From IMG/VR virus record IMGVR_UViG_2698536379_000012: a stretch of DNA of 8,242 nucleotides. One strand, given 5' to 3'. The notes below the pieces were generated by a model, which was not told where the DNA came from, searched no databases, and saw only the letters and a program-made list of their open reading frames with translations. The DNA is from a virus. Taxonomy: Duplodnaviria > Heunggongvirae > Uroviricota > Caudoviricetes. Each line of letters begins with the position of its first letter. The first letter of the stretch is position 1. Below, one piece after another: positions 4,311 to 4,800 of the stretch. Made by a program: the position numbers and the translations under genes.

Positions 4311-4493
4311 ATGAGATTTGTACAGCTTATTTTATTGTATTTCTGCACGGTGGTGTGCACGTTATATCTGGTAAGTGGCGGGTATAAGGTTATCCGGAAC
4401 TATATACGCAAAAAGATTGATGCCGCGGCGGCGGAAAAAATCAGCGCCAGCCAGTCAGCCGGAACAAAACCCGAAGAGCCTCTCATTTCGTAG
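4311..4493 (+). CDS. Small membrane protein (60 aa), unknown function
   Basis: Strong RBS GGGAGGG 5-6 nt upstream of ATG 4311. N-terminal hydrophobic helix FVQLILLYFCTVVCTLYLV followed by a basic tail (KVIRNYIRKKIDAAAAEK). Confidence 0.45.
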   Translation: MRFVQLILLYFCTVVCTLYLVSGGYKVIRNYIRKKIDAAAAEKISASQSAGTKPEEPLIS

Positions 4494-4530
4494 CAACTTT
4501 CTTAACAACACCTTTCAACGAGAAAATCCC

Positions 4531-4800
4531 ATGTCAGAAATAAAATCTCTGGTCACTGCTGAAGCAGTGAAGGACGTCCTGCGCTCTGAAGAAGTCAGAA
4601 GCGCACTGAAACAGCAACTCCGCCAGAATCTTGAGGCGCGTCTTGATGCTGAAGTGGATGCCATTCTGGATGAGCTGCTGGGGGGACCGGCTGCTCCTGA
4701 GCCTGAAGACGGCGCGGGTGACAGTGCTGTTTCAGATGGCGTTGTGTCTCAGCCTGACGGTAGCAGTGAGCCTCAGCCTGGCGGCGAAATGATGATGTAA
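4531..4800 (+). CDS. Acidic protein (89 aa), unknown function
   Basis: ATG at 4531 gives MSEIKSLVTAEAVKDVLRSEEVRSALKQQLRQNLEARLDAEVDAILDELLGG... with an acidic, Pro/Gly/Ser-rich tail ending GGEMMM. The longer 4375 start in the ORF track overlaps the preceding ORF in another frame, so 4531 is preferred. RBS is weak (GAGA). Confidence 0.45.
   Translation: MSEIKSLVTAEAVKDVLRSEEVRSALKQQLRQNLEARLDAEVDAILDELLGGPAAPEPEDGAGDSAVSDGVVSQPDGSSEPQPGGEMMM

Follow-up and report, generated by a model that had tools for sequence, protein, structure and literature searches.

The two small genes at positions 4311 to 4800 of an 8,242-nucleotide stretch of tailed-phage DNA (IMG/VR record IMGVR_UViG_2698536379_000012; the whole stretch is hereafter the window) belong to two already catalogued families, DUF1378 and DUF826, and do not represent a new element. 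Their products, here termed A and B, are identical to the RefSeq proteins WP_001213059.1 and WP_001289717.1, which RefSeq already names as DUF1378 and DUF826. A preliminary description of this DNA could place neither ORF in a family, a view that profile searches overturn. A aligns over residues 1 to 59 with positions 1 to 59 of the 59-position Pfam DUF1378 profile (PF07125; 135.7 bits, E = 5.8e-40) and matches PHROG 494 (E = 1.7e-35), and B aligns over residues 1 to 73 with positions 1 to 73 of the 75-position DUF826 profile (PF05696; 118.7 bits, E = 1.2e-34) and matches PHROG 311 (E = 4e-38); both Pfam scores lie above the gathering score, which is 25 bits for either family. From the sequences and their genomic settings, we tentatively read the pair as a late-expressed accessory module of the inner membrane that tunes lysis by the pinholin and the signal-anchor-release (SAR) endolysin, an interpretation that seems to us possible, if short of probable.

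Neither family comes with a described function. A search of the literature by family names and old locus names returned no published function for DUF1378 or DUF826, and one paper refers to the two briefly as ORFs that lie between nanS-p and S (PMC10462455). Searches of NCBIfam and PDB profiles for a characterized relative gave only noise, with no PDB sequence match below E = 0.1; Pfam yielded no family besides DUF1378 and DUF826, and the PADLOC defense models returned a noise-level score for A (E = 0.039) and no match for B. The preliminary description had named clear homology to a characterized family as grounds for abandoning it; because DUF1378 and DUF826 are both families without a characterized function, the homology found is of a different kind. 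DUF826 also has very few members: when its HMM profile was run exhaustively against 1.84 billion representative proteins, it gave 58 matches, nearly all of them short family members, some of which keep the 51-residue core alone.

The window corresponds to the late region of a lambdoid prophage. Over the 1.3 kb that surround the pair, it is 100% identical to the chromosomes of E. coli O157:H7 and O55:H7, and the whole window is 99.6% identical over 8.1 kb to the copy in O55:H7 CB9615. The prophage carrying the window's copy is a non-Stx, partly decayed prophage of the O157:H7/O55:H7 type. The gene order begins with rusA and proceeds through the late antiterminator gene Q (330..1151, plus strand; Pfam PF03589), a terB-family pseudogene, a DUF3927 ORF and the sRNA STnc100 (1923-2089; Rfam) to the gene for a NanS-p type sialate O-acetylesterase with DUF1737, SASA and DUF6645 domains (2230..4163, plus strand). 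The rusA gene at the window start is disrupted. In the window, the esterase gene is a frameshifted pseudogene, in which a 4-bp deletion leaves two ORFs, 2230-3447 and 3426-4163. Genes A and B follow, and after them come a class II (phage 21 S-type) pinholin gene (4876..5091, plus strand; Pfam PF04971, 112 bits) with two candidate start codons (Met1 and Met4), a YdfR/DUF1327 gene, a lysozyme gene (5491..6024, plus strand; Pfam PF00959), the gene for an Ant-like protein and the spanin gene Rz (7018..7485, plus strand; Pfam PF03245), within which Rz1 is embedded (7238-7423, plus strand; lipobox-like motif LVVSAC). The N-terminus of the lysozyme (MNAKIRYGLSAAVLALIGAGASAP) looks by inspection like a SAR domain, with K4 and R6 preceding the SAR-like helix.

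A and B are real genes under purifying selection. Variation is maximal at the third codon positions of both frames, and the dN/dS ratios of 0.28 for A (21 distinct DNA variants from related loci) and 0.30 for B (25 distinct variants), to be read against a yardstick of 0.07 for the S21-type holin, dispel the concern raised earlier that the ORFs might be spurious for want of conservation. The A-B spacer (4494..4530, plus strand) is 37 nt long in 73 of 81 loci and polymorphic at 3 of its 37 sites. The B-holin spacer (4801..4875, plus strand; 75 nt in the window) measures 74 to 77 nt in 78 loci, is polymorphic at 5 of 75 sites and probably holds the translation-control region of the holin. Neither spacer has a significant RNA fold (z = -0.37 for A-B and -0.72 for B-holin), and an Rfam scan of 4164-4875 gave no match. 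A crude consensus scan found no sigma-70-like site in 3900-5200, where 1.3 would be expected by chance, and there was no promoter-like site 5' of the pair in the P2/Mu-like loci considered below. The terminator scan found no intrinsic terminator in the B-holin spacer and none that was convincing on the strand of the pair. By this crude consensus scan, the combination of an own promoter 5' and a terminator 3' that defines a moron is absent from the pair. Its position downstream of Q places the pair in the Q-dependent late operon, and, since no promoter-like site was found near it, the pair is most likely expressed together with the late genes.

The anatomy offered in the preliminary description stands up in full: a 60-residue single-pass membrane protein with a strong ribosome-binding site, followed 37 nt downstream by a strongly acidic protein of 89 residues with a helical N-terminus and a disordered acidic tail, the two lying just upstream of a lysis cassette whose S21-type holin gene starts at 4876. 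Gene A extends from an ATG at 4311 to a TAG at 4493 on the plus strand, with the Shine-Dalgarno sequence GGGAGGG (4301..4307, plus strand, read from the sequence) 3 nt 5' of the ATG. Its product has a pI of 9.3 and a single hydrophobic stretch, with a Kyte-Doolittle 19-residue maximum of 2.28 at residues 3-21, and is laid out as a membrane helix (approximately residues 3-24), a basic juxtamembrane helix (IRNYIRKKID) and a short tail. The basic residues immediately C-terminal to the membrane helix (K26, R29, R33, K34 and K35; net charge of the cytoplasmic tail, +2.8) point, by the positive-inside rule only, to an N-out/C-in topology, and we infer a bitopic inner-membrane protein with almost no periplasmic part. 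The membrane helix carries the motif LLYFCT.V..LYL.SGGYK, and the slightly longer form LLYF.T.V..LYL.SGGYK.IR is common to proteins from E. coli, Cedecea, Rosenbergiella and a phage deposited as a Stenotrophomonas phage; within the helix, dN/dS is 0.18. That this helix is conserved across genera in its sequence, beyond its hydrophobicity, suggests specific helix-helix contacts. In being small, with one membrane helix and a charged C-terminus, and in being encoded by a late gene near the endolysin, A also fits the generic profile of a holin. The same profile covers many non-holins. A matched no holin family in Pfam.

Gene B runs from an ATG at 4531 to a TAA at 4800, encodes 89 residues and has a weak Shine-Dalgarno sequence, GAGA, at 4520-4523 within the A-B spacer. 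The protein has a pI of 4.06 and a net charge of -12.5, and it divides into a conserved core (DUF826 residues 1-51; 4531..4683, plus strand) and an acidic tail (residues 52-89 and the stop codon; 4684..4800, plus strand) that are distinguished by model confidence and by selection. An AlphaFold model built on the family alignment contains a helix at residues 10-17 and a long amphipathic helix at 20-50, both at a pLDDT of 85 to 98; starting at residue 51, the model shows no helix and becomes less confident, with pLDDT below 50 at residues 60-85. Similarly, dN/dS is 0.11 over codons 1-50, where the core has 23 invariant alignment columns, and 0.50 over the tail. The latter is a variable segment rich in Pro, Glu, Asp and Gly, with in-frame indels and a Met-rich tip, EMMM, and the final 39 residues of B include 8 Asp/Glu, 6 Pro and not a single Lys or Arg. 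About two-thirds of the charge of B resides in the tail, which is disordered and poorly conserved and which many family members all but lack. The single long amphipathic helix of the model would imply that B oligomerizes or has a bound partner. Foldseek returned no match for the B model among viral models at E <= 0.001, as expected for a one-helix model. A 17- to 20-residue N-terminal extension with a "W..WL" motif on unpaired DUF826 proteins is probably an ORF-calling artifact; a good Shine-Dalgarno sequence precedes the core ATG in 6/6 of the unpaired loci checked.

A different gene model, with one longer ORF at 4375-4800 (141 residues) or a frameshift fusion of A and B as the real gene, has a negligible chance of being correct. 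The B frame is open for 45 to 66 codons 5' of the B ATG in all 33 distinct pair regions, the long ORF is annotated in older records (L0106 of 933W and orf43 of VT2-Sakai), and rare fused proteins are present in databases. However, variation in the overlap is highest at second codon positions of the long ORF, which are third positions of the A frame, and the openness of the frame is not significant when compared with synonymous reshuffling of A (P = 0.07-0.18). Distant homologs of A occur as standalone proteins, and, as for a fusion, the B frame is +1 relative to A, with no suitable slippery site recognizable by inspection.

The association between the two families is wide and strong. A tblastn search of 50,697 phage records found DUF1378 in 309 and DUF826 in 307, an almost 1:1 co-occurrence. 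A scan of 185,579 species-representative genomes found no DUF826 and four DUF1378 loci. Conservation of the pair across prophages, which the preliminary description had proposed to check, is evident in IMG/VR, where DUF1378 lies immediately upstream in 148 of the 155 DUF826 loci with enough flanking sequence. The usual order is NanS-p esterase, A, B and S21 pinholin. In a census of 188 non-identical loci, in which probe genes were sought within 700 nt downstream, the esterase, A, B and S21 holin order accounts for 73 loci. Another 23 have the esterase, A and B with no probe gene within 700 nt downstream; these are P2/Mu-like, with the order gin, esterase, A, B and com-mom. The position directly 3' of the spanin gene Rz is taken by A alone in 25 loci and by B alone in 33, with the small terminase gene directly following in 25 of the latter. 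Six loci have A, B or B-A after tail-fiber assembly genes, and the remaining 28 are truncated or mixed. Across this census, B stands alone in at least 47 loci and A in about 28. A and B, although non-homologous, each occupy the post-spanin slot when alone and the pre-pinholin slot when together.

Several of the rarer arrangements are informative. P2-like prophages carry the pair in reverse, with DUF826 followed by DUF1378 between a tail-fiber assembly gene and a Dam methylase gene, and Pfam supports the two assignments at 1e-27 and 3e-20, respectively. In phage BUCT709 and in Rosenbergiella prophages, the ATG of A overlaps the stop codon of Rz, and a tailspike-sized ORF lies downstream of A in BUCT709. 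The acidic protein that follows A in Rosenbergiella, a DUF2560 protein, was considered as a distant DUF826 and rejected, since the hhalign probability of such a relationship was 0.6%. The arrangement with B alone is typical of prophages whose sole named relative is Salmonella phage Fels-1, and in these Salmonella-type prophages the lone B is linked to the small terminase gene as tightly as to Rz. A joint function is well supported by the survival of the pair in either order and in phage backbones that are unrelated. At the same time, about 130 phage records with an S21-type holin (e.g., mEp332) lack the pair, and one Stx1 phage with the esterase and the holin has noncoding DNA in its place. 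The many S21-holin phages without the pair indicate that it is dispensable and not needed for lysis as such.

The lysis-tuning interpretation draws on the partnership of A and B, their probable late expression, the sequence conservation of the A helix, the precedent of the Mu releasin described below and the recurrence of the pair, or of one of its members, beside lysis genes in several arrangements; this last context, seen in several phage lineages, lends support to the suggestion of a lysis modulator made in the preliminary description. In such a scheme, A would be anchored in the inner membrane by its sequence-specific helix ending in SGGY and by the short basic cytoplasmic helix, and B, acidic and cytoplasmic, would probably dock on the basic tail of A or oligomerize. 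Together, they would determine when or how sharply the pinholin triggers or the SAR endolysin is released, and lysis tuned in this way would bear on burst size and on the release of late cargo such as Shiga toxin and NanS-p. An AlphaFold model of P0084, a natural frameshift fusion of the A tail to B whose A-family alignment rows were misplaced by MAFFT, reached a mean pLDDT of 61.7 and a pTM of 0.33. The P0084 model has no confident packing between the A tail and B. Two sets of loci speak against lysis tuning, namely, the approximately 23 esterase-A-B loci of P2/Mu-like myoviruses, which lie between gin and com-mom, and the few loci with A, B or both after tail-fiber genes, far from any lysis gene in the sequence available. 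The S21-holin phages that lack the pair and the linkage of lone B to the small terminase gene weigh against it as well. Moreover, accessory genes classically insert behind Rz, between Q and S and behind the tail fibers, so adjacency to lysis genes may mean no more than that these sites are permissive.

This last consideration leads to a rival reading, which we think rather unlikely, of a generic moron-like late module that targets a conserved inner-membrane protein of the host, for instance, by blocking the DNA entry of superinfecting phages or by altering the cell surface, and that lies beside lysis, tail-fiber and esterase genes merely because those junctions tolerate insertions. The presence of A and B at four distinct module junctions, in phages of the lambdoid, P2/Mu-like and other types, agrees with it, as does the conservation of the A helix, compatible with a host target, in hosts whose holins differ; several neighbors are, furthermore, receptor-binding or carbohydrate-active (NanS-p, the tail fiber and its assembly protein, and the tailspike-sized ORF of BUCT709). 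Yet neither in the window nor in the P2/Mu-like loci was a promoter-like site found ahead of the pair, and the start of A overlaps the Rz stop in two lineages; hence, there is no sign of the expression in the lysogen on which exclusion genes normally depend, and the PADLOC search was empty. A role tied more closely to one neighbor, in which the pair tethers, chaperones or localizes the NanS-p esterase or receptor-binding proteins in general, with the long acidic tail and Met-rich tip of B as a docking motif, strikes us as improbable. It would account for the esterase-A-B order being kept in two unrelated backbones, the lambdoid and the P2/Mu-like, and for long B tails (median 38 residues) being found only in esterase-linked members, as opposed to a median of 9 residues in unpaired ones; 33 of 40 esterase-linked tails end in MMM, TML, TMM or MML. 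It sits poorly with the occurrence of A alone and B alone without any esterase, with about 35 phage records that have the esterase C-domain and lack the pair, and with the window itself, in which the esterase is a frameshifted pseudogene and A and B are intact. The esterase has no signal peptide either, and no mechanism joins it to an anchor on the cytoplasmic face.

The charges of the two proteins invite two further explanations. If A were a membrane-damaging, holin-like peptide and B its cytoplasmic antagonist, as in a holin/antiholin or toxin/neutralizer pair, the generic holin look of A and the opposite charge of B would follow naturally, and single-helix pinholins do exist, N4 gp63 being an example (bioRxiv 10.1101/2025.11.12.688109). 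We nevertheless consider this quite improbable: lone B in at least 47 loci and lone A in about 28 would hardly be expected of an obligate toxin/antidote pair, the lysis cassettes found together with A all have a recognizable holin already, and A matched no Pfam holin family. Still more remote is the possibility, floated in the preliminary description, that B is a DNA mimic or other anti-defense protein, to which A would be unrelated. The strongly negative charge of B (-12.5) is what recommends it. However, the gene lies in the late operon and not among early genes, the charge is concentrated in the tail that many members nearly lack, the PDB and PADLOC searches gave nothing, and the tight pairing with A speaks against an independent role. 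Ocr- and ArdA-like mimics, in contrast, are early proteins presenting a folded, rigid acidic array.

In essentially all Stx phages sampled, the pair sits between the Shiga-toxin/NanS-p cargo and the holin, and the E. coli genomes searched carry up to 15 prophage copies each, with 13 to 14 in the listed O157:H7 strains. If the pair tunes the timing of lysis, it would affect toxin yield per induced cell and burst size and, through these, the virulence of EHEC. If its role is another one, such as exclusion or esterase handling, it would still be a compact two-protein membrane module.

The closest known counterparts are in the Stx and other lambdoid phages, where the L0106 region of 933W, orf43 of VT2-Sakai and ORF47/48 of Min27 have the same families in the same order as the window. 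The Stx-phage copies are about 66 to 73% identical in protein sequence to A and B of the window, and the window DNA diverges from them over the first 230 nt of the DNA query. By layout, the pair can also be likened to accessory lysis regulators that combine a membrane protein with a cytoplasmic partner, such as the RI/RIII antiholins of T4 and LydA/LydB of P1. T4 RI acts via a periplasmic domain, which A lacks. N4 gp62 is another lysis regulator (bioRxiv 10.1101/2025.11.12.688109). Like A and B, the proteins of these three phages are small, non-essential and encoded with or near lysis genes; they act as a membrane component with a cytoplasmic partner and change the moment at which the holin fires. 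The likeness is one of layout, with Pfam giving only the DUF matches for A and B.

A more specific comparison is with the "releasin" gp25 of phage Mu, a membrane-tethered N-out/C-in protein that combines a dibasic junction with an anionic cytoplasmic domain. Its gene follows those of the spanins, and the release of a SAR endolysin with lysines in its short cytoplasmic N-terminus depends on it (PMC9239132). A resembles gp25 in its N-terminal membrane helix, in the predicted N-out/C-in topology with almost no periplasmic part, and in having small residues (VAGG versus VSGG) followed by an aromatic residue and a basic cluster at the cytoplasmic end. The pair as a whole also offers an anionic helical cytoplasmic component and is most likely expressed late, relatives of A sit directly after spanin genes, and the lysozyme of the window, with its SAR-like N-terminus bearing basic residues, recalls the Mu system. 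The differences are equally clear. The membrane anchor (A) and the anionic part (B) are two separate proteins, so that the tail of A is itself basic (+2.8) and the anionic domain is not on the same polypeptide; the window phage has a pinholin, whereas Mu is without a holin; and the window has the pair upstream of the holin, not downstream of the endolysin and spanins. Neither A nor B matched DUF2730 (PF10805) in the Pfam scan, and hhalign comparisons with Mu gp25 gave probabilities of 0.04% for the DUF826 profile and 0.17% for the DUF1378 profile. Set against the criteria for releasins, the window shows an N-terminal helix with a dibasic junction, for which the topology is a prediction, and departs from three others. 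The resemblance is a lead as to how the pair might work, and not a sign of family membership.

Following this lead, DUF1378 and DUF826 could be conceived as a new and widespread lysis-control device, a "split releasin" or an antiholin-like pair, although we regard so specific a version as doubtful. In it, the helix of A would pair in antiparallel fashion with either the endolysin SAR helix or the pinholin, and the anionic helix of B would contact the endolysin at its basic cytoplasmic N-terminus; in the esterase-linked members, the acidic tail and its Met-rich tip might act as an extra docking arm. The pair would then set the moment of lysis of Stx-type prophages and, hence, the amount of Shiga toxin and NanS-p per induced cell. 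More generally, should the lysis-tuning reading prove true, DUF1378 and DUF826 would provide a second, non-homologous example of the recently defined releasin type of lysis control.

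Relative to the copy in the E. coli O55:H7 reference CB9615, the NanS-p sialate O-acetylesterase gene that lies upstream of the DUF1378-DUF826 pair (window 2230-4163, plus strand) is broken at about position 3411/3412 by a 4-bp deletion, which removes one GGAC of the GGACGGAC repeat. The CB9615 gene is intact and encodes 645 aa; after the deletion, that of the window is split into two ORFs, one of 405 aa and the other of 245 aa, which overlap. The rusA gene (window 1-333) also appears to be disrupted, as it is represented by a pair of ORF fragments and lacks about 31 nt by comparison with CB9615, and the terB-family gene (about 1400-1915) contains an internal stop according to the reference annotation. 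Together with the frameshift in nanS-p, these lesions suggest partial decay of the prophage. In contrast, the lysis genes and the DUF1378-DUF826 pair (4311-4493 and 4531-4800) are intact.

The nanS-p gene is flanked by two further features. A full-length Rfam match to the STnc100 sRNA (1923-2089, plus strand; 99.6 bits against a gathering score of 47) is placed in the late leader region, with a DUF3927 ORF on one side and nanS-p on the other. Directly 3' of the nanS-p stop is a GC-rich inverted repeat of 8 bp, GGCCGCCG ... CGGCGGCC (4177-4216), and the 161-nt region containing it folds better than shuffled sequences (z -2.77). No T-run follows the repeat, and it is therefore not a typical terminator.

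The association of esterase, DUF1378, and DUF826 extends to other phages. A P2/Mu-like myovirus prophage (IMG/VR loci L089/L094, 1671-6552) displays the order gin invertase, esterase, DUF1378, DUF826, com, and mom, followed by the tail sheath and tube genes; its esterase differs in the N-terminal domain. The presence of the three-gene esterase module in this setting indicates that it has been transferred between unrelated phage backbones. In a few lambdoid loci (L160, L158, and L161 of IMG/VR), DUF826 is cut off at about residue 52 and continues into a second, divergent esterase C-domain fragment, and these junctions look like recombination scars. DUF1378 is also found next to small acidic proteins other than DUF826: in Rosenbergiella-type prophages (L083, 4172-4450; L221, 3219-3443), it adjoins either a DUF2560 member (pI 4.6) or a 74-aa ORF without a family, neither of which is related to DUF826.

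The spacers flanking the DUF826 gene, toward DUF1378 (4494-4530) and toward the holin (4801-4875), are near-invariant in length and sequence among the relatives, unlike the adjacent coding DNA, which varies. Neither spacer shows a significant RNA fold; our guess is that their conservation reflects control of translation initiation at two genes, DUF826 and the dual-start holin.

The pinholin and lysozyme genes of the window are separated by a YdfR/DUF1327 gene (5096-5440) with no assigned function, which only some relatives possess. In phage BUCT709 (OM816835), an unannotated 71-aa S21-type pinholin ORF (locus L167, 2221-2436) is hidden beneath an annotated minus-strand CDS (Pfam 4e-21, scored on the L175 ORF of the same sequence). 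The lysis cassette of this phage runs from the pinholin through a SAR-like lysozyme and Rz/Rz1 to DUF1378.
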